From the IMG/VR virus record IMGVR_UViG_3300027297_000001, positions 1 through 34,504 of that record: a DNA stretch of 34,504 nt. One strand, written 5' to 3'. Of this stretch, positions 1-34,504 are shown one piece after another. Position 1 is the stretch's first letter. The number at the start of each line of letters is the position of its first letter. Both the position numbers and the translations under genes were made by a program. The DNA is from a virus. Below the pieces are notes generated by a model. It was not told the origin of the DNA, did no database searches, and saw nothing but the letters and a program-made list of their open reading frames with translations.

Positions 1-99
1 AGCATGCGCTCCGGTGCCTGCAACTGCGCCGATTGCTGCATGCTCGTCATTTGCAGGGTTTTCGTCACGGTCGCGCCGCCGGTGATGGTGAATGGATTG
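1..99. repeat. Terminal direct repeat; identical to 34406-34504 (overlap of a circular assembly)
   Basis: Read directly: agcatgcgctccggtgcctgcaact...ggtgatggtgaatggattg is present at both window ends, so unique length is 34405 bp. Confidence 0.9.
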
Positions 100-296
100 T
101 TCTGCGGGATCGTGAAGAGGACTTGCTTCACGACGGCCGTGGAAACTGCCACTCCGTAATAATCCCATTCCGGTTGCACGACGAAATCGCCGAGGCCCGC
201 CGCCAGCATGTTACGCAGGCGGAATTTGGGCCGCCCGATTTCGTGCGCCGAAAGTTCCTGCAAATGCGAAAAGCATTTTGCATTGAGATGTTTCAT
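1..296 (-). CDS. Capsid-like beta-rich structural protein, N-terminal part (gene crosses the circular junction and continues 34405->33940; 253 aa in total)
   Basis: ATG at 294-296 (minus) with SD AAAGGAG about 9 nt upstream. It is in frame with ORF 33940..34473 through the 99-nt overlap (296-68=228 nt). N-terminus reads MKHLNAKCFSHLQELSAHEIGRPKFRLRNMLAAGLGDFVVQPEWDYYGVAV. Confidence 0.65.
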   Translation of the reverse strand, partial: MKHLNAKCFSHLQELSAHEIGRPKFRLRNMLAAGLGDFVVQPEWDYYGVAVSTAVVKQVLFTIPQNNPFTITGGATVTKTLQMTSMQQSAQLQAPERM

Positions 297-362
297 TGTT
301 CGGTGCTCCTTTCTCCCGGCCCGTAGCCGGGGACGTTGTTACTGCATGAAAGTGCATCGCCG

Positions 363-854
363 CTAGGACACGTATTTGCTATACGCGCGCCGCGGGCCGT
401 ACATGCCCATCGCGGACGTGGCCGCCGCAGGCGCCGCCGATTTTCCGGGCGACGTCTTGGAAGCCGATGCCGCGATGGCCGGGGCCTGTTGCTGATACGC
501 CGGAGTGGGGATCGTGAAATTTAACGGTCCATACTGGCCGAGCGTGAGCGACTTCCCGGTTGCCACGTTGACCGCGCGGGAAACCGCATTGACCGAACCG
601 CCGATCAACACGCCTTCCGCAAGGTCGGCACTCATTCCTTTGATCAGGAATGCGCCGCCGAACGCGACGACCAGAGCGGCAAACACTCCGGCCCATCCCG
701 TGCTGAACGATGGAGCGACCATGCCCGGCAAGGTTCCGGCCGCCAGCGCCCCGCCGACCGCGCCCGCCACTTTGACGGCGAGTTTGTTCATATCGCCGGC
801 GCCGAACGGGTTGTGACGACGGAACGGGTGAAACCCTTTTTTGTGATGCGCCAT
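363..854 (-). CDS. Gly/Ala-rich small membrane protein (163 aa)
   Basis: ATG 852-854 lies directly behind a strong SD AAGGAGGA. N-terminus MAHHKKGFHPFRRHNPFGAG is followed by glycine-zipper-like hydrophobic stretches (AVKVAGAVGGALAAG, GWAGVFAALVVAFGGAFLI). The longer start at 944 is not supported. Confidence 0.7.
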   Translation of the reverse strand: MAHHKKGFHPFRRHNPFGAGDMNKLAVKVAGAVGGALAAGTLPGMVAPSFSTGWAGVFAALVVAFGGAFLIKGMSADLAEGVLIGGSVNAVSRAVNVATGKSLTLGQYGPLNFTIPTPAYQQQAPAIAASASKTSPGKSAAPAAATSAMGMYGPRRAYSKYVS

Positions 855-945
855 AAATCCTCCTTCCCCGCCGTCTTTGTCCCCATGAATCCGACGACGC
901 CGGCGAGCGTCATACGTGGGATTGACAAGTCTGACGAGTTGCATA

Positions 946-1647
946 TCAGCCTTTCAAACTTGCGGACGCGGTAGCGTCCAGATTGAAATGATCCGAGATG
1001 TCGTAGCGCCCGCCTTTGAAAAGGCATTCGCCCGAGTACGGATCCACCAGCAAAGCCATTTTCGTATCGTCCCAGCTGCTCATGGACGAAATCGGCATTT
1101 TGTGGCTGCCGAGGGAGGCCCAATTCGCCGCGCCCACCGCCGTGACGACGATGATTTGCGCGATGGGATGGAACACCAGAAAATTCCTGAACTTCGCCGA
1201 GGCGATCATTTCGAGGCGCTGCCGGCGCTTCGGCGCCTCGCGCGGCGCTTCGTCCGGCGCCAGATGGCTTTGCCCGCATCGGTCCACCTTGAAAGGATTT
1301 TTCACCGGCCGCGTGGGATCCGGCACGTCCGGCATGGCCGCATAGCCGCGCCGCAGCGGCAAGCGCGACACGATCAAAAGATCGCCTTCGGGGATCGATC
1401 GCGCGATCGCCGGACCGTGATCCGGCCAGTACAGCCGGCGGCCCACTTTTTCCGCGTCCTCGAGCGGCATCTTGCAGCCGTCGTCCGGTTCGAAATAAAT
1501 CGTTTCGATCATGCCGAACACCTGGTAGCCGCGCCCTGGACCAGCGGCGGTTCGTTCGCGCTTGATTTTCACAGACAGATCGAAATCCATATCGGCCGTT
1601 TTCACGGTGTGGACTTTGATCACTTCGGGATTTGCGGCTGCAAGCAT
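946..1647 (-). CDS. Hypothetical protein (233 aa)
   Basis: ATG 1645-1647 behind a purine-rich tract AAGGGAAGGGAAGAG. The ORF is long with normal amino-acid composition. No family recognised. Confidence 0.65.
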   Translation of the reverse strand: MLAAANPEVIKVHTVKTADMDFDLSVKIKRERTAAGPGRGYQVFGMIETIYFEPDDGCKMPLEDAEKVGRRLYWPDHGPAIARSIPEGDLLIVSRLPLRRGYAAMPDVPDPTRPVKNPFKVDRCGQSHLAPDEAPREAPKRRQRLEMIASAKFRNFLVFHPIAQIIVVTAVGAANWASLGSHKMPISSMSSWDDTKMALLVDPYSGECLFKGGRYDISDHFNLDATASASLKG

Positions 1648-1746
1648 TCGTCTCTTCCCTTCCCTTTTATGACTGGCAGCGGTGCGCGCCGTCTACACGG
1701 CTTGCCCTTCGCGCACCGCCCCAGCCTCGTCGTCGGGGGTTGTCTC

Positions 1747-2538
1747 TCAATTTTCGATCCCGCGTTCCGTCACGCGATATTCGCCGCCCGAAAGGTAAAG
1801 CCGAGGCTGCGCGCCTCGGCAGTCGTACATCAGGCGCGGGCGCACATCGGTTTCCTCGCCGAATTTGTGTTCGTACGTGGCCGTCTTCCCGTCCACTTGC
1901 GCTTTCTTCGTGCGGTAGGCGATCGCCATCGCTTCGCCCAGGTCGATCAATTCCTTCGAATTGTCCGCGCCGGTGAGGGAAAGTTCGCCGCGCGAAACTT
2001 TCTGATTGCCGCCTACGAAATAAATCTGCGTTCCCGCCACGTTTTGCGCCACGCGCACGTTTCGTCCGGTGAAATCGAACACCGCCCATTTCCATCCGGT
2101 CGGCCGCTTGATTTGCAATTCGATCAGATCGCCGATTTCAGAAAGCGTCACGGGCCGCGGGGTCGGTTCGCGGTACTCGTCGATGTGCCCGGATGGCGCG
2201 CCGTGAAATTCCCGGTACGCGTCGGACGCTTCCTCGAGTCCGCCGCTGGAATTCGAGAGCCGCGCCCCGCGAATGCGCGCCGCGCGTTCGCGGGTTTCCT
2301 TTTTCCGCTGCGCCGTTTCCGATGGATTCGCCATCATCACCACAAGCTCGGCGGGATTCGAAAGACGGCAGGGATTTTCGTGTAGTGGATGAAGCACTTC
2401 CACTACGCGCCCGGACCCTTTGTGCCGTCTGCCGGGCGGAAACGCGATGCGCACGCGGTGCCCTCCGCGCGAAACGGTCCGCACCTTTTCGCCACTTTGG
2501 ACCGTGGAGTAGTGCTCGACTCTGAATTGTCCCGCCAT
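1747..2538 (-). CDS. Hypothetical structural-module protein (263 aa)
   Basis: ATG 2536-2538, 4 nt after the stop of the upstream gene. Balanced composition. No family recognised with confidence. Confidence 0.65.
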   Translation of the reverse strand: MAGQFRVEHYSTVQSGEKVRTVSRGGHRVRIAFPPGRRHKGSGRVVEVLHPLHENPCRLSNPAELVVMMANPSETAQRKKETRERAARIRGARLSNSSGGLEEASDAYREFHGAPSGHIDEYREPTPRPVTLSEIGDLIELQIKRPTGWKWAVFDFTGRNVRVAQNVAGTQIYFVGGNQKVSRGELSLTGADNSKELIDLGEAMAIAYRTKKAQVDGKTATYEHKFGEETDVRPRLMYDCRGAQPRLYLSGGEYRVTERGIEN

Positions 2539-2542: not shown

Positions 2543-3391
2543 CTATCTTTTCTTCCCCGTCAAATTATTCAGCAAAATCAAGCCGCCCAGCACGATCCCG
2601 ATATTTAGCGCGTTGTTTTCCAGGAACGATGTGATGTCCGTGGAAGAGGCCGATGCGGCCGCCGCGCTCGCGGTGCCAGGCGTCGAAACGATGGAAAGAT
2701 TCGACGTGCTCACGTTGTTTCCCACGATGCTCTGCATCGTTCCATCGCATACCGATTTCGCGTCACTAAGAAGCGCGTTACCGATCGAATCCAGAATCGT
2801 GAATTGGAAAGTGATCGCCGCGCCTGTGCCGAAAACGGCGTTGAGCACCGTTTCATTGTTGCTGGACGAAAGAACCGACATTCCATGCGCGTTCAGTTGC
2901 GACGCGAATTGAGACATCGCCGAGGTCGGAGAAACCGTCAAATCCCCAGGCCCGCCCACTACCGTGCAAACGTAAAGAAGAGTGCTTCCGCTCGGAACTT
3001 GCGCGGGCGCGCTCACGCTGGATGTAACCGTCGACGCCGGTGCAAGGGGAAGTGAACCGCCGGACGCCGCCGATCCCGCTGGAATCGTTGCGCCGTACTG
3101 CGCGTACAGCTGGGTGAGCGTGATATTTCCGTTAATCAAATTCGTCAAATCCTGATCCGTCGCGCCGAGCGAGTTGAGCAAATCAAGATCGCTTTGCGTG
3201 CACACTCCGGCAGCGAGCGCCGCTTCCTCTTCGGAAGAGGAAAACGATCCGAGCGTGATCGCGCCTGGCGCGTATCCCATGTGCGCCACGTAGCTGAGAG
3301 AGTGACCGCCTTTCAGATGAAACGCCCCGGACGAATAGCCCATGCCCGGGCGAAGCGAAGGCGCTCCGAATGCTCGATTGGGAAAAATCAT
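2543..3391 (-). CDS. C-terminally anchored Ser/Thr/Ala/Gly-rich membrane protein (282 aa), member of the paralog run
   Basis: The start MIFPNRAFG forms an ATGA overlap with the upstream stop (3388-3391). The C-terminus ...TSFLENNALNIGIVLGGLILLNNLTGKKR is a TM helix plus basic tail. The 28-codon N-terminal extension of the track ORF is rejected. Confidence 0.7.
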   Translation of the reverse strand: MIFPNRAFGAPSLRPGMGYSSGAFHLKGGHSLSYVAHMGYAPGAITLGSFSSSEEEAALAAGVCTQSDLDLLNSLGATDQDLTNLINGNITLTQLYAQYGATIPAGSAASGGSLPLAPASTVTSSVSAPAQVPSGSTLLYVCTVVGGPGDLTVSPTSAMSQFASQLNAHGMSVLSSSNNETVLNAVFGTGAAITFQFTILDSIGNALLSDAKSVCDGTMQSIVGNNVSTSNLSIVSTPGTASAAAASASSTDITSFLENNALNIGIVLGGLILLNNLTGKKR

Positions 3392-4026
3392 CGGCGTTTC
3401 TTTCCACCACCTAGAAGTAAAAACAATCCGATCGCGCCGCCGGCAAAGACCGCTCCGTTCGGCACGCCGGCCCACACCGTTTCCTCGCCCAGCCAGGTCA
3501 TGAAGCCGGAAAAGCTGTCCGTGGCCGGCGCGGCGGCGCTGGCCGCGGCGACCTGCGCCGTCGTTGGCGCGGGAATTCCGGTGATCAAATCCCCCTGCGC
3601 GGCGAGGGCCGAGCCTTGCGTCGTCAGTTCGTTCGTGCTGGTGATCAGCGCGCCGGAATTTTGCAGCGTTTGCGCGTCCGGCGTCAGTTGCCCGGAATAG
3701 GAAAGCCCCGTCGCCGGATCGACGACGTTCGTGATCATCGAAGGCGCGGAAACATCAACGACTGATCCCGTACTGGACGAACCGCCGCCGGATGAACCGC
3801 TTCCCGATGAACTTCCAGACGCCGGCGAGGAAGCTACTCCGCTGGACGCGGGAACCGTGGGCGGCGTTGGTTCAGCGGCCGTCTCCACTGGCGCGGGCGG
3901 ATTGGAAGTAAACACGCGCGCGATGATCGGCGCTGTCGGGCGATATCCCGGCCCGATGATCGGCGCTGCAGTGTCGCCAGAGGCGTGCACGCTTTCTCCC
4001 ATGAACGGTGTGTTCCAGGCGATCAT
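3388..4026 (-). CDS. C-terminally anchored Ser/Gly/Thr-rich membrane protein (212 aa), paralog run
   Basis: The start MIAWNTPF forms an ATGA overlap (4023-4026). The C-terminus is FMTWLGEETVWAGVPNGAVFAGGAIGLFLLLGGGKKRR. The pre-anchor segment QLTPDAQTLQNSGALITSTNELTTQGSALAAQGDL resembles that of the next paralog. Confidence 0.7.
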   Translation of the reverse strand: MIAWNTPFMGESVHASGDTAAPIIGPGYRPTAPIIARVFTSNPPAPVETAAEPTPPTVPASSGVASSPASGSSSGSGSSGGGSSSTGSVVDVSAPSMITNVVDPATGLSYSGQLTPDAQTLQNSGALITSTNELTTQGSALAAQGDLITGIPAPTTAQVAAASAAAPATDSFSGFMTWLGEETVWAGVPNGAVFAGGAIGLFLLLGGGKKRR

Positions 4027-4733
4027 CGGCGCTTCTTTCCGCCCTGCAGGAGCACCGGAATAATCGCCACGGCCAGGATCCCGATTCCCACCACGCCGAT
4101 GTTGGGAATCCCCGGGATCAAATTCGCGGCGGACATCCAACTGGTAAGCGAAGTCAACGGATTCGTCGTTGGCGGCGCGGCGTAAAGATTGCCGGCGCTC
4201 AAAAGCGCCTGCCCCTGCGCCGTAAGTTTTCCCGCCGCCGTCACCAGTTGGCCGGACGCGTTGAGGGCCTGCGCCGCGGCCGTCAAATTGTTCGTCTGGA
4301 TCGTGGAAGTCACGCCGCTATTCGGATCGGTGAGCGTCACCGTGCCTTGCGTGGCCGTGGTGTCCAGGTTCGCGGTCGCCGCGCCCGTGGTCGCGCCGGT
4401 TACTTCCTGCGCGGTTGCGTAGGGAACGCTCTGCCCCGTCTGAATGTTCGTATACGTCCCATCGCCGTTGCTCACAAATTCCGTGCCCACCGTCGACGGA
4501 TACATCGATTCAATCGATGGCGAAACCACGTTCGTCGGCGGCAGCGTGGATAAATCGATAGGCGTGCTCGTATCGATCGGAGCGCCGGTGTCGATGATCG
4601 GAGTCGAATCGTAAGTCGGCGTCGTGTCAAACTCCGATGGATCCTGGCCGAGCCCGCGCATGCCGCAGCAACGCTTTCCGTTCGGGGCAACGGTCAGTCC
4701 GGGAAGCGGCGAATCCATTTGCGCGTAGGCCAT
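4023..4733 (-). CDS. C-terminally anchored Thr/Ala-rich membrane protein (236 aa) with MAYA leader-like N-terminus
   Basis: The start MAYAQMDSPLPG overlaps the upstream stop by 1 nt (TGATG at 4731-4735). Motif M-R-G-L-G lies at 4647-4661. The C-terminus is TSWMSAANLIPGIPNIGVVGIGILAVAIIPVLLQGGKKRR. Confidence 0.7.
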   Translation of the reverse strand: MAYAQMDSPLPGLTVAPNGKRCCGMRGLGQDPSEFDTTPTYDSTPIIDTGAPIDTSTPIDLSTLPPTNVVSPSIESMYPSTVGTEFVSNGDGTYTNIQTGQSVPYATAQEVTGATTGAATANLDTTATQGTVTLTDPNSGVTSTIQTNNLTAAAQALNASGQLVTAAGKLTAQGQALLSAGNLYAAPPTTNPLTSLTSWMSAANLIPGIPNIGVVGIGILAVAIIPVLLQGGKKRR

Positions 4734-5071
4734 CAGCGTTTCCGTCCCCATCCCTTGACCGCGATCAGCGCCAGGAAAGCGCCGCCGATCGCGAAAATGG
4801 AATTCGGCATTCCCGGCACATACGAAGATTGGCCAAGCCAGGTGAGCATTTCGTCCCACAAACTCGTTTGCGTCGGCGTCGTCGCGGAACTGATTTCAAA
4901 CTGTCCGCCTGGCCCGATCGTAAAAGTCGTGAGCGGGACATCGCCTATTCCGCGAAAGTTCGGATTGAGGCCCGCGCTCACCTTCGTCGAAAGCGGCGCG
5001 TACGATCCCATGCCGCGCAAATTCGGATGCAGCCCGGAAGTGTTTCGCGTAGTCAAGCGAGCGTAAGCCAT
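4733..5071 (-). CDS. Small C-terminally anchored membrane protein (112 aa) with duplicated leader-like motif
   Basis: ATG 5069-5071 behind SD AAGGAA. N-terminus MAYARLTTRNTSGLHPNLRGMG is followed by a second copy, GLNPNFRGIG. The C-terminus is LTWLGQSSYVPGMPNSIFAIGGAFLALIAVKGWGRKR. Confidence 0.7.
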   Translation of the reverse strand: MAYARLTTRNTSGLHPNLRGMGSYAPLSTKVSAGLNPNFRGIGDVPLTTFTIGPGGQFEISSATTPTQTSLWDEMLTWLGQSSYVPGMPNSIFAIGGAFLALIAVKGWGRKR

Positions 5072-5099
5072 CAGTTTTTTCCGTTCCTTGCCGGACTCA

Positions 5100-6029
5100 T
5101 CACAGCACCGCCAACGCGCCGATGATCGCCAACGCAACCCACGCCAGCGGCGGAACCGAAGCCAATCCGCTGCCGGGAACGCCGGGCGCGATCACCGAAT
5201 TGCCGGGCGCGGGAGTCGTGCCGCTCGAGGCGGCGGCCGCTTGCTGCGCTTCCGCCGCTTGCTGTTCGGCGATGGCCGCGTATTGCGCCTGCCAGTACAG
5301 CACCATCGCGTACAGAATCACGCTCATTTCGCAGTTACTATTGCAGTACGGGGAATCGTTGATAGACGTTCCCCCGCTGGGAATCGATCCCGGACCGGAC
5401 GCCGTTCCCGATGCCCCGCCTTGCTGCATGAACGTTTCGTACACCTGCAACAGCGCGGCTTGCGCCGTCGCCGGCGTCATTTGCCCGCCCTGGACGGCCT
5501 GTGCGATCAGCGAAAACGAATTGTTTACCGCCGGAAGCGCGGCGCATCCGAAACTCAGGTCGCGTTTCACGGCGGCCGCATGGTGAGCGAAAATCAATTC
5601 GATCACGGCAAAGATCGCGCCGATCCCCATCGTCACCGCGCCGGCGATCGCCGCCGTGGACGCCGCGATTACGGACGTCGAGGCGAGGATCCCGATTCCA
5701 GCCGAGGATGTGCCGAGCGCGAGGCCGCTGGCCGTCTGAAAAAGATTTACGTTCGATGGAGCGGTGCCGCAGGAAGGCGAATACCATCCCACATTGAATT
5801 GCCCGGCCGAAATTTGGTTTTCCGCCTCGGTGAGCCAGGATTGATCCCCGAAATCTTTCGGATTCAGGTGCGCGCCGGCATAGGCCGTGATGGCTTGCTG
5901 CATCGCCGCCTGCGCCGTGAGCGAGGCGGTCTGGCCAAGCATGCCGAGGCCGCGCAGCCTGCGTATGCCACGCAAGTTGGGATGCAGCCCCGAAGTGTTC
6001 GCGGTTCGTAGCATCGCGTACGCCATCAT
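5100..6029 (-). CDS. Multi-pass membrane protein (309 aa) with MAYA...NTSGLHPNLRG leader-like N-terminus
   Basis: The start MMAYAMLRTANTSGLHPNLRGIRRLRGLG forms an ATGA overlap with the stop of the protease gene (6026-6029). There are several hydrophobic segments (GIGILASTSVIAASTAAIAGAVTMGIGAIFAVIELIF; C-terminal PPLAWVALAIIGALAVL). The 130-codon upstream extension of the track ORF is rejected. Confidence 0.7.
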   Translation of the reverse strand: MMAYAMLRTANTSGLHPNLRGIRRLRGLGMLGQTASLTAQAAMQQAITAYAGAHLNPKDFGDQSWLTEAENQISAGQFNVGWYSPSCGTAPSNVNLFQTASGLALGTSSAGIGILASTSVIAASTAAIAGAVTMGIGAIFAVIELIFAHHAAAVKRDLSFGCAALPAVNNSFSLIAQAVQGGQMTPATAQAALLQVYETFMQQGGASGTASGPGSIPSGGTSINDSPYCNSNCEMSVILYAMVLYWQAQYAAIAEQQAAEAQQAAAASSGTTPAPGNSVIAPGVPGSGLASVPPLAWVALAIIGALAVL

Positions 6030-6832
6030 GCCGCCGCCATCCACAGCAAAGCGCCAAGCAAAATCACGCCGAAGATTTCCATTTCCTGCGTTGCGGCCGG
6101 AGTGGCCGCGGTCGATGGATTCAACAGCGTTGCGCCGCCCGGCCCCTGCGCGCCCGTATTCGCCGCCTGGACCAGTTGCCCGCCCACGGCCGTCAATCCC
6201 TGGCCGGCAATTTCCAAGCCGCTTGCCACCTGGCCGAGTCCGCGCACGCCGCGGCGCGCATAGCCGGCCATTCCCGCATCGCTCGAATAATCTCCGTGCG
6301 AATCGTCGATCAGGCTCCACCATTTGCGCCGATAGAAATGCGCCGGCGCCACTCCAAACACGGCGCCGGGCCGGGCCGCATCCAGCGGATACCACTGGCC
6401 ATCCTGAAAAACTTCGCAATAGACGTGGGAAAAAGAATCGGGCGCGTTCGGATCGCAGGCGATGGTGACGAGCCGCGTTTCGTAACCGATGGTGCCGAGC
6501 AAGGCGGGAAGGACGTTCGCATTGATATCGTCGCAGTCACCGGCATGCAACTGTAAAAGTTCCCGCGTGGGCCGCAGGGCTTCTTTCATCACCGGATCGT
6601 TCACGAAATAAAACGAATGCGCGAAATCGTAGATCGCGTGAATTTGTCCCCATGCATCGTACGGCGCGACGCCGGCGTTGCGGACGATATCGATCGCTGT
6701 GCGGTTGACGAACGGATCTTTCCAAGCATCGTCGACGAGGCGGCGCAAAAGTGAAATCGTTTGCGCCGTTCCATCGTCGCCGCCGGCAAGCGGGACGGAA
6801 TAAATCAGGCCAGGGGTCGCGTGGATTGCCAC
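6026..6832 (-). CDS. Transglutaminase-like cysteine protease domain protein with C-terminal TM anchor (268 aa)
   Basis: Cys-His-Asp core pattern of the transglutaminase-like superfamily: HAGDCDDINANVLPALLGTIGYETRLV ... FSHVYCEVFQDGQWYPLDAA. The C-terminal hydrophobic helix is MEIFGVILLGALLWMAAA. The start is GTG (6830-6832) and is the first gene after the divergent control region. Confidence 0.75.
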   Translation of the reverse strand: MAIHATPGLIYSVPLAGGDDGTAQTISLLRRLVDDAWKDPFVNRTAIDIVRNAGVAPYDAWGQIHAIYDFAHSFYFVNDPVMKEALRPTRELLQLHAGDCDDINANVLPALLGTIGYETRLVTIACDPNAPDSFSHVYCEVFQDGQWYPLDAARPGAVFGVAPAHFYRRKWWSLIDDSHGDYSSDAGMAGYARRGVRGLGQVASGLEIAGQGLTAVGGQLVQAANTGAQGPGGATLLNPSTAATPAATQEMEIFGVILLGALLWMAAA

Positions 6833-6850
6833 GGGCGCAATCTGCGCGCA

Positions 6851-6896: not shown

Positions 6897-6922
6897 AGTT
6901 GGTTCCTATCCCTTGCATTCCA

Positions 6923-10058: not shown

Positions 10059-10060
10059 CT

Positions 10061-17652: not shown

Positions 17653-17660
17653 CGGAGAAA

Positions 17661-26167: not shown

Positions 26168-26188
26168 GGGGCACCGGGTTTCCCTTTG

Positions 26189-26862: not shown

Positions 26863-26906
26863 CGTGATTTTCCTTTCCGAGTTTCGCTATGGGGCAGGCG
26901 CCGGGG

Positions 26907-27362
26907 TTACTGACCCGCAGCCACTACCCCCGTTGGAGGGTTTGGGACGCGTGCCGCCGTATAAATATCGTAGCTGGTCGGAGGCGTGCCCGTGGTGGGG
27001 CCGACCCAAGTCAGCACGATATTCCCTTTCGGGCCGGGCACCGCGGAGACGGATTGCGATCCGCTGCCCGCGGTGGTTCCGGTCCATCCCGGAATGCTTT
27101 GCCCCTGCGCGTCAACGGCCGTCACTTCATACGAACAAGTGGATGTCGCCGGGCAAGTGGTATCCGTGTAAGTCACAGTTGGTGCCGTGACTGACGTCAA
27201 AAGCGTGTAGCCGCTCGTGGCCTGGCCGAAGAGCAGCCGCCAGGGAGCCGCCCAAAATATGAGCAAGAGCCCGAACGCCGCCATTCCGAGCAATCGTGTC
27301 GTCCTGACGTTTCGAAGCCTCGCAATTGCCGTTCCGATCCATCGCGTGAACTTGTTTTTCAT
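26907..27362 (-). CDS. Signal-anchored beta-sandwich (FN3-like) protein (151 aa)
   Basis: ATGA overlap at 27359-27362. The N-terminal anchor is LLGMAAFGLLLIFWAAPW. Then ...TVTYTDTTCPATSTCSYEVTAVDAQGQS...IVLTWVGP. Confidence 0.6.
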   Translation of the reverse strand: MKNKFTRWIGTAIARLRNVRTTRLLGMAAFGLLLIFWAAPWRLLFGQATSGYTLLTSVTAPTVTYTDTTCPATSTCSYEVTAVDAQGQSIPGWTGTTAGSGSQSVSAVPGPKGNIVLTWVGPTTGTPPTSYDIYTAARVPNPPTGVVAAGQ

Positions 27363-27571: not shown

Positions 27572-30500
27572 TCAGAACGATTCGCAATCCCAATTCGCGC
27601 CCGCCGCCGAGGCCGACACTAAGACAGACCTGCAAGTGACGTGCTTTAAATTTGCAATCACAAGGGTTGTGTTAGTCCCATTCACGGTCTGGCCCGAAAT
27701 GGCGGCACCAATCGTGACTGTATTGGCCCCGGTTGTTTGGATGTTTTCTCCATTGCAAGTTTTCCCAACAAGCGGAATTGCATCCGGCAAATTAAGCTGA
27801 ATACTTCCGCCGGAGGGATCGGCTTGCCATCCCGCTCCACAGTCCGCATAGTTTAAATAGAGAGTCCCACCTACCGTTCCTGGCTTGAGGGCGCTGACAA
27901 TAATCCCCATTTTCGCGGCGGGCGTGATGTTCGCCGTCGCGGTGTATGCTCCCGCGACGCGCGCGATCATAGATTGTGTATTCATCGTGAATTGCACGCC
28001 CGACCCCGCCACGCTCGGAAGGAAATTGCCAGATTGATACCAACCAAGCGGCGGGTTTGTGTATACGGATGCGCTCAGTCCAGTTGCGCTATCTGCGAAG
28101 GTCGAAGCACGCAAAAAATCGTTAGCAACGGTTGTGGTAATGGATGGCGTGATGGCAGTTGTTTGAGACCCGGCGGTCGATCCGCATCCAGAGGCCACAT
28201 CAATGACCGAAGTGGTCGCGGTGCGCTGGTCCTCGGTCATGAAAATATTTACAGAGGAAGCGGCTGTACTCGAAAAAGTGATCGTCACGGTGGTTGCTCC
28301 ACCTACAGCATTCGGGGCACTGTAGCGAACAATGTTCAGATTTCCTCCGGACGGATACACGCAGGAAGCATGATCTGCAGTAAAAGTGTCTCCGGGACCA
28401 TCGGTGACTGTGGAAATTGTCGGCCCCCCCGTGAGCCACTGGATAGCCACACCGAGTGTACTTCCTGGAGTCACAGTGACCGGGAATGTGCATGTGGCCG
28501 TTGCAACACCTGGATTCCCGATGGTGCACGCATAATCGGGCTGAACCGTGTAAGGAAACACCGCATTTCCAACTTTGTAAATATTGGGCTGCGCGTTGGT
28601 TCCGAATGCCGCCGCGTCGTATTGAACATGGGCGCTCATATAGGGGCCGAGGTAGGCATCATCAGAAATTTGCGTGGGATGGATGTGGTCGGCTTGGAAA
28701 TAGGTTCCGCTTGACGATGCTCCATCCGCGCCAAGATTCGGTTGCGCAGCCCAATCCATGACATCGTTGCAAACAGTAGGCAGCGAGGCGCGCGCGAGCG
28801 TGTTGTACTGATTAATGATAGCGTCCGACGATCCCGTCCCCGCTTTGAGAGTGGTCGAAGCAATCGTATAAAATCCGGCCCTGGATGCCGCGCGGCACCA
28901 GGAAAGTTCATATTGGAGAGCCTGTTCGGGCGTTGCCAGTTCGCCTGCACGCAGATCATTTGTCGGCCCATCATTTAAGGCAATATTCCAAGGCGCAGTT
29001 GGCGTGAGATATTGCGGAAGCGTGGCAAGCGTGTCCTCGGAGCCAAGTTGAATGTACGTGTTGCTGTATGCTTGGTTCACAACATTCCAAGGTACTGTCC
29101 CTGGCAAATTGAGTCGATAGTTCATGGGGCCGTTAATCCCCTGTCCCACGACAATCGAGGTTCCTGTCAGGTTTAGCTTGTTGACTTGCGACGTGGCCAA
29201 GATCGGAAAATAACCTTCGATCTGCGCGAGTGATTGAAACGCCTGCCATTCTGCCGTGATTTGCGCCTGCGTGGGCGCAACGGTGAGGAATTCCATTCCA
29301 ATGACCGTCATACTGGAAAAAATGCCAGTGATACCCCAAGCAGTGCCAAAGAGTTGAACGTTCCCCGCACTCATCGCTCCAAAAGAGGAAGCAGGCGTAT
29401 AGCCTGCATAGGAATTCACTTTTTGATTATTGAGGTATAGCGCATCGGGGCTTCCAGGGATGAAAGTGATCATGCCCACGCCGTTGAGACCGTCCGGGCT
29501 GGTACTCGGTGCACCGCTGCCGATCGGTTGAATATCCAAGACATTAAATTGCCGTCCGGGCGCGCTATTGCTTAAATCTAAAATCAGGTTGTTATTGTTG
29601 GCCGCGTTGGTTCCGCCGAGAAGGACTTGATACATACCGCCAAATTGCGAACCGGCGACAACTGCCGCTTGCTGCATATAATTTCCAGGATCGTTGTAAG
29701 TAAGATAGATCAATACGGCGGCGTAATTCGATTGATTAAATGGAAACGTAACGGAGCAATTAGCATTAGTAGCGGTTATGCCGTAGGCTGGGCCGAGATT
29801 AAGTGTCACAGTTCCATTGACGCAGGCACCAATGGTGCCAGTGCGGTTGTTGCCAGAACTGTCTGCGATACTCGTACCGGAACCGTCTCGAAAGAGATAT
29901 CTGGCATAAACGCTCGTTCCCGTGAGCGCAAAAGGAATTGGCGGAATTGATGGTCCAGCATTGATCCAATTCGTCTGACACGTTCCACCGGAAGGCGCCG
30001 CGCTATCAAGCACCTGCCCGGCTGTGGGATTTGCGGTTGGCTGCAATAGAGCGCATGGACTAGCCGGCCCGATCGACGACGGTCCCGAGAAGATCGCAAA
30101 CTCATTTGCTGCGGGACTTCCAGTCGTCGTTACGGTTCCAAGAGTGGCGAAATTCGTCAGCTTCGGCGCTGCGGCGTTTAACGTGGCGCTGATATCCATC
30201 GTCACGCCAGTAATCGCGATGGTAACGGAAAAAGTCTGTGGGCCAGTTCCGAAAGGCCCTGGAATTCCGCCTTGATTGGAATTGACGGTGATCAACCATT
30301 GACTCAAAGCTGGTAGGATTTGCGAATTGTTTCCGAAATTTGCGGAGAAGTGGCCATTGGAATCGAGCGGGACGGTGTTGATCTGCCCGGAATAAGGAAG
30401 CACGACTCCGTTGTTATTTAACGTCCATCCGCCAGGCGATCCCGGAACGAGAACGGCGCTCATCGTTCCATTGCCATAAGGAATGCCATTCGGATCCGTG

Positions 30501-30610
30501 ACGGTCGCCGTGACGGTTGTGAACGGATTCGGAGTTCCCGAGACAGCCGCCGGAGACGTAAAAAGAAAAGCCCCGGCAAGCACCAGGGCTGCAAACAGAT
30601 TCTTTTTCAT
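27572..30610 (-). CDS. Large signal-peptide-bearing, Thr/Ser/Gly/Asn-rich protein with SGNH/GDSL-esterase-like central motifs (1012 aa); candidate receptor-binding/receptor-modifying spike
   Basis: The N-terminus MKKNLFAALVLAGAFLFTSPAAVSG is Sec-type. A beta-sandwich-like segment follows (TVTATVTDPNGIPYGNGTMSAVLVPG). SGNH-like blocks are LNLTGTSIVVGQG, NIALNDGPTNDL and YFQADHIHPTQISDDAYLG (DxxH). The remainder is beta-rich. Confidence 0.6.
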   Translation of the reverse strand: MKKNLFAALVLAGAFLFTSPAAVSGTPNPFTTVTATVTDPNGIPYGNGTMSAVLVPGSPGGWTLNNNGVVLPYSGQINTVPLDSNGHFSANFGNNSQILPALSQWLITVNSNQGGIPGPFGTGPQTFSVTIAITGVTMDISATLNAAAPKLTNFATLGTVTTTGSPAANEFAIFSGPSSIGPASPCALLQPTANPTAGQVLDSAAPSGGTCQTNWINAGPSIPPIPFALTGTSVYARYLFRDGSGTSIADSSGNNRTGTIGACVNGTVTLNLGPAYGITATNANCSVTFPFNQSNYAAVLIYLTYNDPGNYMQQAAVVAGSQFGGMYQVLLGGTNAANNNNLILDLSNSAPGRQFNVLDIQPIGSGAPSTSPDGLNGVGMITFIPGSPDALYLNNQKVNSYAGYTPASSFGAMSAGNVQLFGTAWGITGIFSSMTVIGMEFLTVAPTQAQITAEWQAFQSLAQIEGYFPILATSQVNKLNLTGTSIVVGQGINGPMNYRLNLPGTVPWNVVNQAYSNTYIQLGSEDTLATLPQYLTPTAPWNIALNDGPTNDLRAGELATPEQALQYELSWCRAASRAGFYTIASTTLKAGTGSSDAIINQYNTLARASLPTVCNDVMDWAAQPNLGADGASSSGTYFQADHIHPTQISDDAYLGPYMSAHVQYDAAAFGTNAQPNIYKVGNAVFPYTVQPDYACTIGNPGVATATCTFPVTVTPGSTLGVAIQWLTGGPTISTVTDGPGDTFTADHASCVYPSGGNLNIVRYSAPNAVGGATTVTITFSSTAASSVNIFMTEDQRTATTSVIDVASGCGSTAGSQTTAITPSITTTVANDFLRASTFADSATGLSASVYTNPPLGWYQSGNFLPSVAGSGVQFTMNTQSMIARVAGAYTATANITPAAKMGIIVSALKPGTVGGTLYLNYADCGAGWQADPSGGSIQLNLPDAIPLVGKTCNGENIQTTGANTVTIGAAISGQTVNGTNTTLVIANLKHVTCRSVLVSASAAGANWDCESF

Positions 30611-30700: not shown

Positions 30701-31876
30701 CTACTGATAGTTCACCGTGAAATCGATCGAGGCGCTGCTCGCCTTCACGCAAATTCCATTCAGAAAAAGATTGTCGTAAATCTCGGGCGGCGGTGTCGTT
30801 GTGGCGATCGAGGTGATCACCGAAACCACGTTCGTCGCCGGCGTGCCTGTGCAGCTTCCCGGCGCGAGATCGAATAGCGTGATCGTGCCCGCGGCTGGCG
30901 TGCCGATCACCACGGAGTGCACGGTTCCCGGGCCGGGTTTGATTTCCGTCGCCGTCGTGCTCGCCAAATGCGAATAGCTGTTCGGCATCTGGAAGCCTGG
31001 CGGCAGGAAAATATAGTCCATCGTGAAGACGTTTGCATTCGCCCCACCAGCGGTGTAAACGATCAGCACGTTCACGCATGGAAGAGGCGGGACATCGAAA
31101 AATTGAGCGCCCGCGCTCGTGGACGGCGTGAAGGTAAGATTGGTGGGATTGACATTCGTCGACGGAGAGCACTCCACAACGATCGTCGAACCGGACGGCC
31201 CCGAACCGCCCACATAGGCAAACGAAATATAGCCGTACGCGCTTCCCAAAGGGGTTTGCGAAACCCCGGAAACCACGCTCACGCCAGCCGGCGCGTTCGC
31301 TGCAATCACTTTATCCAGTTGCGCGACTTGATAGGCGCCCACGGTTTGCACTGGCTCGGCCTGCGAACCTGAATAACTGAGTAAAAAAGTTCCGGTGTTG
31401 GGAACGCAGGTGATCTGAACTTCCACAGTGGGGAAATATCCCGATGCCGTGACTGCCGCATTCGATCCTACGCCAGCCTGGCCTTGCGTTGCGGTATCCG
31501 AAATCAGGTACGTTGTCCCGCTGCTATCCACGCCATAAATTGCCATCGCCATCGAAGCCACGCCAGCCGTCTTCGCGTAGGCGTGATGCTGCGTTTGGTT
31601 GCGATTGTTTACGGGAAAGGTTTGCGTCGATCCCGTGCAAGCTGTCCCTGCGGGCGCTAATGTTTGCTGGACTGGAACGATGCTTACCGGCGTCTGCGCC
31701 ATCGCGGGACGCGCGGCAAATCCCGCAAGAGCGAACAGAAGGACGAGCGAGCCGCCCAGCTTCGCGAGCCGTTTCTTTAGCGAGGGAATGAAGGCGCGCG
31801 GCGTCTTCCGGTTGCGCAGGGCCTTTTTGATTCCCTGAATTTGCTTGTCTTTCGGGATGTTCATTCTTCGCTTCAT
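30701..31876 (-). CDS. Signal-peptide-bearing beta-rich protein (391 aa)
   Basis: A basic N-terminus is followed by LGGSLVLLFALAGFAARPAMAQ (AxA-type cleavage context). The remainder is Thr/Ser/Gly/Val-rich and beta-like. Confidence 0.65.
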   Translation of the reverse strand: MKRRMNIPKDKQIQGIKKALRNRKTPRAFIPSLKKRLAKLGGSLVLLFALAGFAARPAMAQTPVSIVPVQQTLAPAGTACTGSTQTFPVNNRNQTQHHAYAKTAGVASMAMAIYGVDSSGTTYLISDTATQGQAGVGSNAAVTASGYFPTVEVQITCVPNTGTFLLSYSGSQAEPVQTVGAYQVAQLDKVIAANAPAGVSVVSGVSQTPLGSAYGYISFAYVGGSGPSGSTIVVECSPSTNVNPTNLTFTPSTSAGAQFFDVPPLPCVNVLIVYTAGGANANVFTMDYIFLPPGFQMPNSYSHLASTTATEIKPGPGTVHSVVIGTPAAGTITLFDLAPGSCTGTPATNVVSVITSIATTTPPPEIYDNLFLNGICVKASSASIDFTVNYQ

Positions 31877-31930: not shown

Positions 31931-32647
31931 CTACCAGGCGACGGAACGATCCGTCGCTTCGAATTGATCGTCCCACGTCCGCGGATAGAAATATCCGCCC
32001 AGGAGCGCGCCTACTTCCTCGCCGGACACGGGAAGTGACACATTCTGAAAAACCCACTGGATGATGTCGTTTTCAAAAATGCGGATCCCGGAGATGCGCG
32101 CCGGGCTGGCGATGAGGCCGTAAGACGCGAGCACGTTCTGATAGTTGCGCTCGGCAAAGCCTCCCGTATTCGGCCCTGCGCTGGGATTGCGCACGATCTG
32201 CCAGATCGCGGCCCCGGAAAAATCGGACCATGCGCCGCCTACCACCACATTTGCGATACGATTCAGCACGCCGTTACGGCCTGGCGGGCAGGTGATCGAA
32301 ACGACTGTGTGATACACGCCATCCGCGGCGGGGATGAGAATTCCGCCGCCAAGATGAAAAGATTCGGAGTCCGGCGGTTCGATCAGCCACGGCGCGGCGA
32401 TTAACCGCGTGGAACGCTGGACTTGCTGCATCACGCTCTGAACGGAATTGATCGCGTCGATCGTGGGATCGTCGGAAGCCGCCGGCGCGGCGGGCGGACG
32501 CAGCACTAGATTCGGCTGGATGGAGCGATCGGCGCGCCGCTTATACGGCCAGGTAGTTTTCTCGATCGAAGACGCGGCCGCGTCCGTCCCGTTCGGTTGC
32601 CCGGCGGCGTCCGATGGGCTTGTGGTAACGAGTGTTTCGTAGGCCAT
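31931..32647 (-). CDS. Beta-rich capsid-module protein (238 aa)
   Basis: ATG 32645-32647, 1 nt after the upstream stop. Sequence ...GVYHTVVSITCPPGRNGVLNRIANVVVGGAWSDFSGAAIWQIVRNP...ISGIRIFENDIIQWVFQNVSLPV. Confidence 0.6.
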   Translation of the reverse strand: MAYETLVTTSPSDAAGQPNGTDAAASSIEKTTWPYKRRADRSIQPNLVLRPPAAPAASDDPTIDAINSVQSVMQQVQRSTRLIAAPWLIEPPDSESFHLGGGILIPAADGVYHTVVSITCPPGRNGVLNRIANVVVGGAWSDFSGAAIWQIVRNPSAGPNTGGFAERNYQNVLASYGLIASPARISGIRIFENDIIQWVFQNVSLPVSGEEVGALLGGYFYPRTWDDQFEATDRSVAW

Positions 32648-32648: not shown

Positions 32649-33152
32649 TTAGCTTCTCCACCAGGCCGAATAGCCGAAGAGGCTCACGCTCACGGTGTTC
32701 GGATTCGCGCCGTCGAGATTTTGGATCCGGCAATTCACGGGCGAACCGTTGGCGATGAAGTGCGGAATTTTCAGCAAGCCAGGTTCCTTGCCGTTCGTCG
32801 TGAAGAGAACCTGATCCACGCCGTATTTTCCCCACTTGTACCCGAGCAAATCTTCGTAGATGAGCGCGCGAAAGGAACCGGATGCCGCGGCAAGGCCGGA
32901 CGTGGCATGCGCCAGAATCGCGACCAGCCAGAAATCCTCTTGGATGGTGACGCGCGCGAGGTCGGTTTCTCCGGCGGTCAAAATCAGCGGTTGAAACGCG
33001 TACCAGTAGAGATGCGCGCCGGCGAGCGAGAGCCGAACCCATTGCGGCGGAACCCATCCCGACGAAACGAGTTTTCTGCGATTCTGCCAGGCCCCGAGCG
33101 TGGGAGACATTCTCGCGCCGGGTACATGGCCTTGCGTCCAGGGGTTAATCAT
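32649..33152 (-). CDS. Small beta-rich capsid-like protein (167 aa), paralog of 33217..33825
   Basis: ATG 33150-33152 directly after hairpin A copy 3. Sequence EDFWLVAILAHATS...LFTTNGKEPGLLKIPHFIANGSPVNCRIQNLDGANPNTVSVSLFGY. Confidence 0.6.
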   Translation of the reverse strand: MINPWTQGHVPGARMSPTLGAWQNRRKLVSSGWVPPQWVRLSLAGAHLYWYAFQPLILTAGETDLARVTIQEDFWLVAILAHATSGLAAASGSFRALIYEDLLGYKWGKYGVDQVLFTTNGKEPGLLKIPHFIANGSPVNCRIQNLDGANPNTVSVSLFGYSAWWRS

Positions 33153-33190
33153 TTTATTTCGCGCACTCCATGTGCGCAATTCCTTTCCTC
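33153..33190 (-). promoter_or_regulatory. Hairpin motif A, copy 3
   Basis: In gene sense: GAGGAAAGGAATT-GCGCAC-ATGGA-GTGCGC-GAAATAAA-ATG. The hairpin is at 33161-33177. Confidence 0.6.
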
Positions 33191-33216
33191 ACGGATCGCG
33201 CGTCACGAACCACGAA

Positions 33217-33825
33217 TCACTGTTGCGACGGCACTGCGCCCAGCTGCGCGGCTTGCGCGGCCGGGAACAGCTTATATCCCCAAAAACTGATCTGGATCGT
33301 GTTCGCTGCGCCGCTCGTATTCACGATCGAAATGTTGTACACGCGCTTTTTGGGAAGAAGCTGCGGGATCAAGCCCGCCGGAAATGGAAGCTGCGCGCTG
33401 CCGGCGAAGAGATCGATATTTACGGGCGCGCTCATCCAGGAAAGGCCGCCCGAGCCGCCCTCGGTGACGTTCACGGTCGCGAGCGCGCTCGTGTAGTCCG
33501 CCAGCAACATCAAAAGCTGGAAATCGGCGTCGCTATCGATTTGAATCGTCTGCGCGATGGTTCCATTTCCCGCGAACGTGAAATTCGCGATGTAGTGGAA
33601 CATTTTCGCGATATAGAGATTCCCCCCGAGTTCCTGCAGTTGCGGATCGTTCATCAATTCGTTCAATTGATCCTGCGAAAGCGGCGCGCCCTGCGAAGCG
33701 CCCATCGGCACGGGCAAACGCCTCGCGTGATCCAGCGCGAATCGATCCACGTCCAGCATCGACTTGAATTTTGCGATCCCATCCTTAAACTTTTCGTTCG
33801 TATCCACGGTAGAAAATCCCTTCAT
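33217..33825 (-). CDS. Beta-rich capsid-like protein (202 aa)
   Basis: ATG 33823-33825. Sequence DADFQLLMLLADYTS...VNIDLFAGSAQLPFPAGLIPQLLPKKRVYNISIVNTSGAANTIQISFWGYK shares the pattern DF-x-L...LA..TS...LF...P...N..GA..NT(I/V)x(I/V)S..GY with 32649..33152. Confidence 0.6.
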   Translation of the reverse strand: MKGFSTVDTNEKFKDGIAKFKSMLDVDRFALDHARRLPVPMGASQGAPLSQDQLNELMNDPQLQELGGNLYIAKMFHYIANFTFAGNGTIAQTIQIDSDADFQLLMLLADYTSALATVNVTEGGSGGLSWMSAPVNIDLFAGSAQLPFPAGLIPQLLPKKRVYNISIVNTSGAANTIQISFWGYKLFPAAQAAQLGAVPSQQ

Positions 33826-33845
33826 CGCTCGCCTGCGTACTGCGT

Positions 33846-33917
33846 GCGGGCCGCGGCGCCTTCGCGCTTACGGCCCGCGATCGAGTTTTCTCGGCGTCCG
33901 CGCAATGCCACGCCGAG
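33846..33917 (-). other. Two GC-rich stem-loops downstream of the junction-spanning capsid-like gene
   Basis: ctcggcgt (33890-33897) / acgccgag (33910-33917), and gcgggccg (33846-33853) / cggcccgc (33871-33878). There is no U-tract in the gene sense. Confidence 0.4.
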
Positions 33918-33939
33918 GGTCCGCACGCGGTTCCAGTTT

Positions 33940-34504
33940 CTAGAGAACCGCGCGCGCCTTCTGACCTTCCAGGTACACGAACGCATTGATTCCCGTCCCG
34001 ATGGGCACGGTGTTGTTTGCATTCGTGGTGAAGCCCGTGGCTTGCGCCCAGGCCGCCTGCGTGGGATCGACTTCGACCCTGAACGCCTGTTGCTGCGCGA
34101 TCAGGATTCCATCGATGTTCGGGAACTGGTCGACGCCGGGAGTTCCGTCGCATCCGGGATCCGTCAGACGGAATCCCTGGTGCTCCGAAGGCAGCCCATT
34201 GCCCACAGCCCCGATGATCGTGTTCGCCGCCGTGGCGCCAAATTGCTGCGCCCACACGCCGCCGCCTGCCGGCAATTTCGCCAGCACGCCCACCACAAAG
34301 AACGACTTCGTGGAAATGAAGAAGTTCACGATGGTCTGGCTTCCGAAGCGAACCATATCGAACTGGTTCACGTTGTTATCGACGAATACGGTGATCCCGC
34401 GAACAAGCATGCGCTCCGGTGCCTGCAACTGCGCCGATTGCTGCATGCTCGTCATTTGCAGGGTTTTCGTCACGGTCGCGCCGCCGGTGATGGTGAATGG
34501 ATTG
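33940..34504 (-). CDS. Capsid-like beta-rich structural protein, C-terminal part (same gene as 1..296; runs through the 99-nt overlap)
   Basis: The frame is open to the window end. The 'M' at 34473 in the track is an internal GTG (Val). Sequence ...FDMVRFGSQTIVNFFISTKSFFVVGVLAKLP...GILIAQQQAFRVEVDPTQ...NAFVYLEGQKARAVL. Confidence 0.65.
   Translation of the reverse strand, partial: NPFTITGGATVTKTLQMTSMQQSAQLQAPERMLVRGITVFVDNNVNQFDMVRFGSQTIVNFFISTKSFFVVGVLAKLPAGGGVWAQQFGATAANTIIGAVGNGLPSEHQGFRLTDPGCDGTPGVDQFPNIDGILIAQQQAFRVEVDPTQAAWAQATGFTTNANNTVPIGTGINAFVYLEGQKARAVL
34406..34504. repeat. Terminal direct repeat; identical to 1-99
   Basis: See feature 1..99. Confidence 0.9.

Follow-up and report, generated by a model that had tools for sequence, protein, structure and literature searches.

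What kind of particle is built by a phage-sized genome that encodes membrane proteins, lysis enzymes and a DNA translocase and shows none of the hallmark genes of a tailed phage? The question is raised by the IMG/VR virus record IMGVR_UViG_3300027297_000001, whose full stretch of 34,504 nucleotides is called the window here. A first-pass annotation, made from the letters alone, proposed a tailless, membrane-containing virus. The present analysis supports that proposal, although the membrane and the icosahedral shape reach beyond what sequence evidence can carry. The window is a complete circular double-stranded DNA (dsDNA) genome of an uncultured virus, most likely a new branch within the known type of tailless, internal-membrane viruses, for which we infer virion shape and lipid content. 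The main subjects are a 253-residue capsid candidate, its structural neighbours and a 745-residue HerA-like ATPase.

Positions 1..99 are identical to 34406-34504, and this direct terminal repeat is the assembly overlap of a circular genome with a unique length of 34,405 bp. Because the first 99 bases equal the last 99, the open reading frame (ORF) of the 253-residue protein reads from 296..1 and then from 34405..33940. Two arms make up the circle, diverging at 6833-6992 and converging near 21.2-21.3 kb. The minus arm runs from 6832 through 1/34405 to 21310 and holds the morphogenesis and lysis genes; at 19,928 bp it is the co-oriented 20-kb arm that had been described at first sight. The plus arm, 13-14 kb long and reaching from 6993 to about 20273, carries replication and modification genes. 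GC content is about 59% overall, with a single AT-rich gap at 10.06-10.82 kb (GC 0.456). A tRNA search of the window found none, and an Rfam scan returned no family.

Profile searches define what the window lacks. Pfam and PHROGs were run on the roughly 30 largest ORFs, Pfam also on 10 smaller ORFs and 10 long alternative-frame ORFs, and NCBIfam on 10 ORFs. Among the 30 or so largest ORFs, no Pfam or PHROGs model of a portal, terminase, HK97 capsid, tape measure, baseplate or tail fibre was matched, in agreement with the absence of these genes reported in the first-pass annotation. The 10 smaller ORFs showed no tailed-phage hallmark in Pfam, the 10 alternative-frame ORFs had no Pfam match at all, and NCBIfam added nothing for its 10 ORFs. 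The Pfam and PHROGs scans thus place no HK97 capsid, portal or TerL in the window, the HK97 result resting on profile hidden Markov models (HMMs) only, without fold models of the 391-, 428- and 263-residue proteins. Precomputed Pfam annotation of about 10 related contigs likewise holds no tailed-phage hallmark. The scans of the largest ORFs gave five kinds of match: Transglut_core, VanY/M15, DnaB-N with AAA_25, half of a C5 methyltransferase and an N6/N4 methyltransferase. No credible gene of the window contains a canonical [AG]xxxxGK[ST] Walker A motif, and the 745-residue HerA-fold protein is the sole large P-loop protein besides the replicative helicase.

The gene for the capsid candidate lies on the minus strand across the junction, with its 5' part at 33940..34405 and its 3' part at 1..296. 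Its product has 77 homologs at 33-100% identity. An exhaustive profile search with the family retrieved 350 representative clusters with E<=1e-3, of which 108 reach E<=1e-10; all are about 180-300 residues long, and the clustering is at 50% identity. No structural gene is better conserved among close relatives: identity is 84-90%, versus 41-75% for its neighbours. Structures were predicted for this protein (AlphaFold2, 71-sequence alignment) and for the N-terminal 400 residues of the ATPase. The capsid-candidate model has a predicted local distance difference test score (pLDDT) of 76 and a predicted template-modelling score (pTM) of 0.72, and it consists of a beta-sandwich, one helix and an N-terminal arm whose sequence is nearly invariant though predicted to be disordered.

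Foldseek comparison of this model, a jelly-roll check suggested earlier, gave as the best PDB match chain 6oj0_A, the single-jelly-roll capsid protein of the membrane-containing Sulfolobus polyhedral virus 1 (SPV1), with weak scores (E 1.5e-2, probability 0.98, template-modelling scores, or TM-scores, of 0.35/0.46). Further jelly-roll capsids in the PDB list come from SH1, P23-77 (VP16/VP17), TBSV, PBCV-1 and picornaviruses. Double-jelly-roll proteins (PBCV-1, SGIV, D13) match the model at a probability of <=0.15 only, and no window ORF scanned has a Pfam or PHROG match to a double-jelly-roll capsid. In BFVD, most matches are capsid proteins of CRESS-DNA viruses and circoviruses, and the best-fitting ones are I1ZBH9 (211 residues, probability 0.98, TM-scores 0.40/0.46) and the adjoining accession I1ZBI0 (256 residues, probability 0.96). 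The genome of phage SSIP-1 encodes adjacent structural proteins, gp46 and gp47, of exactly 211 and 256 residues, and from these lengths and the adjacency we infer that the two accessions are gp46 and gp47. The modelled fold is thus described as jelly-roll-like and nearest to capsid proteins of membrane-containing viruses, with weak scores. By sequence the family stands apart: PDB profile searches with shallow and deep alignments were empty, no PHROG matched even the diverse family, and hhalign detected no profile-level link to the 202/167, 238 or 391 families.

Three further proteins follow the capsid candidate on the minus strand: a 202-residue protein (33217..33825), without a Pfam, PHROG or PDB match, a 167-residue paralog of it (32649..33152) and a conserved 238-residue protein (31931..32647). 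The earlier claim of several small beta-rich, capsid-like proteins of 167-253 residues stands as regards the four ORFs (253, 202, 167 and 238 residues), and beta-richness is shown for the 253-residue protein only. The paralogy of the 202 and 167 families is supported by hhalign (93.3%, E 2.7e-7, 116 columns), with a shared core visible in the alignment, and by the sister clade, in which the 202-family HMM also matches the 167-like ORFs. A higher value of 98.8% from a deeper alignment is inflated because some 167-like ORFs had entered the 202 alignment, and 93.3% is relied on instead. The 202-residue protein is a candidate for a second capsid protein or capsomer subunit. PDB profile searches with the 202/167 and 238 families found nothing.

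Two apparent links within this cluster did not hold. A relationship between the 167- and 238-residue proteins (hhalign 91%) is an artefact, because one fused ORF sat in both alignments, and the value falls to 0.2% once that ORF is removed. A 541-residue fusion of 202-, 167- and 238-like parts in one relative, L049 (L049:10934-12559, plus strand), which resembles a jelly-roll fusion, is probably an assembly artefact: it has an Arg-rich tail that looks out of frame, the contig name suggests a long-read assembly, and among the best 120 homologs of the 202/167 family none exceeds 242 residues or is fused. A shorter fusion of 167- and 238-like parts in another relative, L051 (L051:2734-3702, plus strand), may be real and is known from that single contig. 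Both fusions share an 'FGY..VAP' junction between the 167-like and 238-like parts.

The 745-residue HerA-like ATPase is encoded at 13863..16100 on the plus strand, in the arm opposite the capsid candidate. It was resolved by structure prediction only, since Pfam, PHROGs, NCBIfam, PDB phmmer and PDB profile searches gave nothing significant. The AlphaFold2 model of its N-terminal 400 residues reached a pLDDT of 87.8 and a pTM of 0.84. Its top 50 Foldseek matches in the PDB all have a probability of 1.00, with E-values of 8e-15 to 7e-10 and TM-scores up to 0.59; nearly all are HerA translocases or their complexes, besides one DndH C-domain and a few unnamed bacterial proteins, and no terminase is among these 50. 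This result bears out the HerA/FtsK-type ATPase named at first sight, and weak Pfam matches in 40 diverse family members point the same way (AAA_10 in 15/40, FtsK_SpoIIIE in 6/40, DUF87 in 1/40). The protein comprises an N-terminal barrel-like part, an acidic low-complexity linker and a conserved C-terminal domain (about 15891-16058). Its Walker A-like motif is GQTQLSGKT (13953-13979) and its Walker B-like motif VIVPES (14547-14564); the Walker A Gly, Lys and Thr and the Pro-Glu of the Walker B-like motif are invariant across the family. The C-terminal 70 residues resemble a winged-helix DNA-binding domain, and one family member matches a winged-helix Pfam model. The whole protein is proposed to be the genome-packaging motor.

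The remainder of the minus arm is rich in membrane proteins and wall-degrading enzymes. Crude hydropathy assigns a transmembrane or signal-like segment to about 15 of its 27 ORFs, two further flags being beta-strand false positives. The dozen or more small membrane-anchored proteins counted earlier are thus borne out in number, though not all of them are small. The first gene of the arm (6026..6832) encodes a 268-residue transglutaminase-like cysteine protease with a C-terminal transmembrane anchor. It matches Transglut_core at E 1.7e-5, above the Pfam cut-off, and carries a Cys in GDCDD (6527-6541), a His in SHVYCEV (6410-6430) and an Asp in YPLDAA (6374-6391). A 169-residue lytic transglycosylase (SLT_3/SLT; 23852..24361, minus strand) likewise combines a strong match (SLT_3, E 2.7e-23) with a C-terminal hydrophobic segment. 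Both membrane-anchored enzymes of the first-pass annotation, the cysteine protease and the transglycosylase, are therefore recovered. Between the transglycosylase and the convergence of the arms, a soluble 159-residue M15/VanY peptidase (23176..23655, minus strand; Pfam VanY and Peptidase_M15_4) is of the phage endolysin type and matches PHROG endolysin families down to E 3.6e-22.

In IMG/VR, the capsid candidate is encoded on seventeen contigs (37-99% identity), and fifteen of these measure 33.3-38.8 kb. They comprise a close group of 10 contigs (34.1-37.5 kb, capsid candidate 84-99% identical) and a sister clade of 7 (37-40% identical, with 5/7 of 33-39 kb). ENA, Logan, JGI and one NCBI assembly supply further related contigs, 28-48 kb in length, and the group, whose genomes are of about 35 kb, includes at least 27 near-complete contigs. 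Nearly all relatives share one gene order: transglutaminase-like, tail-anchored, 263-, 233- and 193-like genes, the capsid candidate, then 202-, 167-, 238- and 391-like genes, the gene for a large protein and finally SLT. Among the IMG/VR loci, the stretch from the 263- to the 238-residue gene is kept in all but two (L009 and L058), which are cut by the contig end and show part of the order only. A search of 50,697 phage records found neither the capsid candidate nor the ATPase, the plasmid collection holds no match to either, and the capsid family was not found among GTDB species representatives; three distant members of the capsid family have no IMG/VR loci. Together with the lack of PHROG and PDB-sequence matches for the capsid candidate and the ATPase, these results favour the earlier suggestion of a possible new lineage, and the data fit a new family-level group of tailless internal-membrane phages. 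The literature searched contains no description of the group, though one may exist elsewhere.

The ATPase family, searched with its N-terminal 400 residues, comprises more than 1100 homologous clusters. Its members in metagenome-assembled genomes (MAGs) come from Terriglobales, Pyrinomonadaceae, Bryobacteraceae, Planctomycetota, Gemmatimonadales, Myxococcota, Pseudomonadota, Bacteroidota, Bathyarchaeia and Nitrosopumilus. For some copies the surrounding contig is 0.3-5 Mb long, and this points to integration. One homolog sits deep inside a 5.04-Mb chromosomal contig of Phycisphaerales (L048), and 428-like and transglutaminase-like genes stand beside the ATPase both in an Acidobacteria MAG contig of 336,611 bp (L023, PJLO01000003.1) and in a 34.7-kb Acidobacteriota contig (L034). 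Related elements can apparently integrate. Because of the ATPase-family MAGs and these two Acidobacteriota loci with shared genes, soil Acidobacteriota are the best guess for the host.

Comparison with known viruses places the window more closely. Experiments have shown SSIP-1 to be an icosahedral phage that has no tail, contains an internal membrane and uses two types of capsid protein (PMC6356626, PMC5332951), and it has been grouped with the sphaerolipoviruses that have two major capsid proteins (PMC5332951, PMC6356626). Like the window, it has a circular dsDNA genome that is large for this type of virus (43.8 kb versus 34.4 kb), and both have a very large protein in the structural arm. Both also encode a transglutaminase-like protein, which in SSIP-1 is the virion protein gp34; the two align at 26% identity over 160 residues (pairwise E 2e-5) with matched Cys, His and Asp motifs. 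Beyond this protein, no sequence similarity was found and no homologous structural gene set. The profile of the 253-residue family has no match in SSIP-1, and the likeness at capsid level is structural and weak. SSIP-1 also has no homolog of the HerA-like ATPase, its Walker A proteins gp40 and gp41 sit inside the structural module, and its host is of a halophilic Bacteroidota type, whereas the window has soil relatives.

The Helvetiavirae (the Thermus phages P23-77/IN93 and the haloarchaeal viruses SH1/HHIV-2/HCIV-1) offer a second comparison. They are tailless viruses with an internal membrane and circular or linear dsDNA, and they combine side-by-side genes for small single-jelly-roll capsid proteins with an ATPase that belongs to the FtsK-HerA superfamily (PMC5332951, PMC8328091). 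The window likewise clusters small proteins (253, 202, 167 and 238 residues), two of which are paralogs. However, VP16/VP17 and the SH1 chains match the 253-residue model at a probability of <=0.15, and PDB profiles of the 253, 202/167 and 238 families show no sequence homology to VP16/VP17 or VP4/VP7. The window genome is also about twice as large, and its 745-residue ATPase lies in the replication arm, not beside the capsid genes. For the Portogloboviridae, the tie is the best single structural match of the 253-residue model, to SPV1 VP4 (6oj0_A). SPV1 is a non-lytic virus of an archaeal hyperthermophile, and its genome, 20 kb in length, is wrapped into a nucleoprotein core (PMC8459092). The two show no sequence similarity, and the window differs in having a translocase-type ATPase and lysis enzymes.

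With Tectiviridae and Corticoviridae (PRD1, PM2) the window would share a general plan, namely a tailless particle, a transmembrane protein-rich internal membrane, an FtsK-HerA ATPase and a membrane-carried muralytic enzyme. The transglycosylase P7 of PRD1 is the counterpart for the window's SLT enzyme with its transmembrane anchor. Unlike these viruses, the window shows no detected double-jelly-roll capsid, its genome is 2-3 times larger, and neither the protein-primed polymerase nor the terminal inverted repeats are present in it. Cellular and defence-system HerA proteins, finally, match residues 1-370 of the window ATPase in fold (E 8e-15 to 1e-10, TM-scores up to 0.59), with conservation of the Walker A Lys and Thr and of the Walker B-like Glu. 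The window protein differs in its atypical Walker A (Q first, GQTQLSGKT), in a Walker B with PE and not DE, in the added acidic linker and C-terminal domain, and in its location on a 34-kb mobile genome with structural genes; the window encodes no NurA, Sir2 or DUF4297 partner. Judged by sequence, the window belongs to none of the viral groups compared, and its plan is closest to SSIP-1 and the sphaerolipovirus-type single-jelly-roll viruses.

These results make it probable that the virion is tailless, with a protein shell over a virus-modified membrane. In the proposed life cycle, the helicase and the iterons (repeats described below) would replicate a circular episome, and two methyltransferases would protect the genome. 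The minus arm would be expressed as a late block. The 253-residue protein, perhaps with the 202/167 pair and the 238-residue protein, would assemble the shell, and many viral transmembrane proteins would populate the internal membrane under it. A hexamer of the HerA-like protein would then pump the genome into the preformed particle, and its C-terminal domain may select viral DNA, in the manner of the FtsK gamma domain, which recognises a target sequence. The SLT enzyme and the transglutaminase-like protease, both anchored and borne on the virion membrane, would open the cell wall during entry, like P7 in PRD1, and the 1012-residue secreted protein would act as a receptor-binding spike. The soluble M15 peptidase and small transmembrane proteins would lyse the cell and release the progeny. 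Packaging by FtsK-HerA ATPases is described for single- and double-jelly-roll capsid viruses with internal membranes (PMC6563490, PMC8328091).

Several observations weigh against this tailless internal-membrane reading. About 13 kb separate the ATPase gene from the capsid candidate, and the two lie on opposite arms; in known single- and double-jelly-roll viruses the packaging ATPase gene usually adjoins the capsid gene (PMC6563490). The protein is a full-size HerA-like ATPase in the replication arm, not a small one of the A32/P9 type, and its best matches are HerA proteins of cells and defence systems, not viral packaging ATPases. Its family is much wider than the capsid family, and some elements that bear it show no visible capsid gene within the fetched flanks. 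The 253-residue model has no structural match at E<1e-3, TM-scores stay at or below 0.46, and PNGase F, C1q/TNF-like domains and small tailed-phage beta-sandwich proteins match it as well. Because the fold matches are weak and include such generic beta-sandwiches, the capsid role rests on conservation and context.

A bolder form of the tailless internal-membrane reading is possible and is offered tentatively. It holds that the window belongs to a widespread, undescribed family- or order-level lineage of tailless, membrane-containing phages that infect soil bacteria (Acidobacteriota and perhaps further phyla). The capsid family would lack sequence relatives among cultured viruses and be nearest in structure to the single-jelly-roll proteins of SSIP-1 and the portogloboviruses, and the full-size HerA motor, fused to a DNA-recognition domain, would have been recruited independently. 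If true, the jelly-roll viruses would gain both a new branch and a new kind of packaging motor, unlike the small A32/P9-type ATPase of their known members.

A non-viral mobile element is the rival that survives best, unlikely as it is. In that case the window would be a plasmid or integrative element with transfer like that of a type IV secretion system, its HerA/VirB4-like ATPase driving DNA and its transglycosylase acting as VirB1. The weak AAA_10 matches of the ATPase family are to a VirB4/TraC-type model, the arm holds a membrane-anchored transglycosylase among many transmembrane proteins, replication looks plasmid-like (a DnaB-type helicase with iterons), no integrase was found in the window, and large chromosomal contigs from many phyla harbour relatives of the ATPase. 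However, no ORF scanned has a Pfam match to a relaxase, a coupling protein or a VirB6/8/9/10-type component, and the ATPase is absent from 72,556 plasmid records. The narrow size range of 33-39 kb and the fixed order of about 10 structural genes across 37-99% identity also speak for a virus, as do the endolysin-type M15 peptidase, the cataloguing of close relatives in IMG/VR and the most conserved gene, since virus capsid proteins are the best matches of its beta-sandwich product.

An enveloped pleomorphic or vesicle-like virus, similar to plasmaviruses or pleolipoviruses, is an improbable alternative. Such a particle would have no icosahedral shell, and its jelly-roll-like proteins would be envelope spikes or matrix. 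About 15 encoded transmembrane or secreted proteins would suit it, the ATPase is unlinked to the capsid-like genes, jelly rolls are common in spikes and receptor-binding proteins as well, and the fold matches are weak. Yet at least four conserved small proteins are soluble and have no transmembrane segment, the most conserved of them with a conserved N-terminal arm, and the genome encodes both a HerA-type motor and a lysis enzyme. To our knowledge, plasmaviruses and pleolipoviruses bud without lysis and have no packaging motors, and their genomes are much smaller than 34 kb. A tailed phage so divergent that profile HMMs miss its capsid, portal, terminase and tail genes is very improbable: most ORFs have no detectable homologs, so that the lack of hallmark matches alone is weak evidence, yet the sole motor candidate has a HerA fold with no terminase in its top 50, the long ORFs (alternative frames included) and the annotations of about 10 relatives hold no TerL, portal or HK97, transmembrane proteins dominate the arm, the largest protein has a signal-like N-terminus, and few ORFs are long enough for portal, TerL and tape measure together.

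The tailless internal-membrane reading matters for the virus-evolution and soil-virome fields. Cultured tailless membrane-containing dsDNA phages are few and come mostly from extreme or marine settings; we know of none for Acidobacteriota, which are among the most abundant soil phyla. The window represents a coherent group of genomes of about 35 kb that standard phage annotation cannot recognise, and it is a candidate link between the single-jelly-roll capsids of SSIP-1, sphaerolipovirus-like and portoglobovirus-like viruses. Its ATPase may also exemplify a HerA-proper translocase that, equipped with a DNA-binding domain, packages a viral genome. Soil metagenomes could be searched for such viruses with three markers: the capsid candidate, the ATPase and the anchored transglutaminase-like protein.

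Other genes of the structural arm, all on the minus strand, complete this picture. The 1012-residue protein (27572..30610) has an N-terminal signal-like segment by hydropathy. No homology was found in Pfam, PHROGs, NCBIfam or a single-sequence PDB search, and one BLAST match leads to L051 (37% identity; the matching ORF is not recorded), where a gene for 656 residues, situated downstream of the capsid cluster, weakly matches a pectate-lyase-like Pfam model. The protein is a candidate spike or receptor-binding protein; of the large spike-like protein described earlier, the size and the signal-like segment are confirmed, and 'spike-like' itself is not verifiable by homology. Next to it, a strongly conserved 391-residue protein (30701..31876) has a basic N-terminus, one transmembrane or signal-anchor segment and a Thr/Ser/Gly-rich region. 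Directly upstream of the capsid candidate lie conserved membrane proteins of 193 (363-944) and 233 residues (946-1647), together spanning 363..1647, and then a soluble 263-residue protein with a basic N-terminus (1747..2538) that is kept in all relatives. PDB profile searches with the 428, 263 and 391 families were empty.

The genes that follow towards the start of the arm encode a 283-residue protein ending in a hydrophobic segment and GKKR (2543..3394), two paralogous tail-anchored proteins (3388..4751; hhalign 99.9%) of 212 (3388-4026) and 242 residues (4023-4751), each with a C-terminal transmembrane segment followed by GGKKRR, and a 311-residue protein with about three transmembrane segments (5100..6035). 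These consecutive proteins have common MAYA-type N-termini or RGLGQ motifs. To judge by such features, a small family of tail-anchored proteins, of the virion or a membrane, is probably encoded at 2543-6035. Elsewhere in the arm, four small transmembrane proteins of 151, 156, 68 and 96 residues are encoded at 25877..27362, and a 222-residue protein with an N-terminal transmembrane segment lies near the lysis genes (21871..22539).

A 117-residue protein (24358..24711, minus strand) has an RRTFLR twin-arginine-like N-terminus and carries a copy of the capsid arm: residues 24-64 of the capsid candidate recur in it as a 41-residue stretch of 51% identity (E 6e-12). Possibly it resides in the membrane or periplasm and mimics the capsid N-terminal arm.

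The plus arm opens with a conserved 428-residue protein (6993..8279), followed by a 485-residue replicative helicase with DnaB-N and AAA_25 domains (8601..10058; Pfam and PHROGs). Just 3' of the helicase gene, the AT-rich non-coding gap (10060-10820) contains an array of 9 exact AAATGCCCA sites in both orientations (10320-10639), compared with 0.43 copies expected by chance. This array is iteron-like and a candidate replication origin. Immediately upstream of the ATPase, a 254-residue protein (13109..13873) with an Ala/Ser/Ile/Asp repeat tail (IASASDIAIDIASASA...) has homologs in distant ATPase-bearing loci, upstream of the ATPase in L018 and downstream of it in L017 and L025, and may be a partner of the ATPase.

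Two methyltransferase genes follow the ATPase. The C5 cytosine methyltransferase (17649..18897) is split between two reading frames: 17649-18635 holds the N-terminal motifs (Pfam E 1.4e-24), and 17665-18897, which alone has no Pfam match, holds a GNGVV-type C-terminal end. The split could reflect a frameshift, a pseudogene or an assembly error. The N6/N4 methyltransferase (18894-20273, plus strand) is matched by both Pfam and PHROGs.

The most distant syntenic relative, L015 (Logan SRR21617309, 28 kb), has a capsid candidate 33% identical to that of the window. A resolvase-type recombinase and a Mom-like DNA modification gene adjoin its structural arm, and it has an SLT lysin where the window has both the SLT and the M15 enzymes.

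At the end of the window's structural and lysis arm, a 70-residue ORF (21654-21866, minus strand) contains two zinc-finger motifs, CxxCxGxG, of the kind found in the central domain of DnaJ (Pfam E 4.5e-5, which does not pass the curated cut-off). The palindrome TGAC-N7-GTCA occurs four times in the window, compared with 0 expected. Two copies (6852-6895) overlap back-to-back promoter-like sites between the arms, and two tandem copies (10669-10699) stand beside the iteron-like array; all four are probably operator sites of one regulator.

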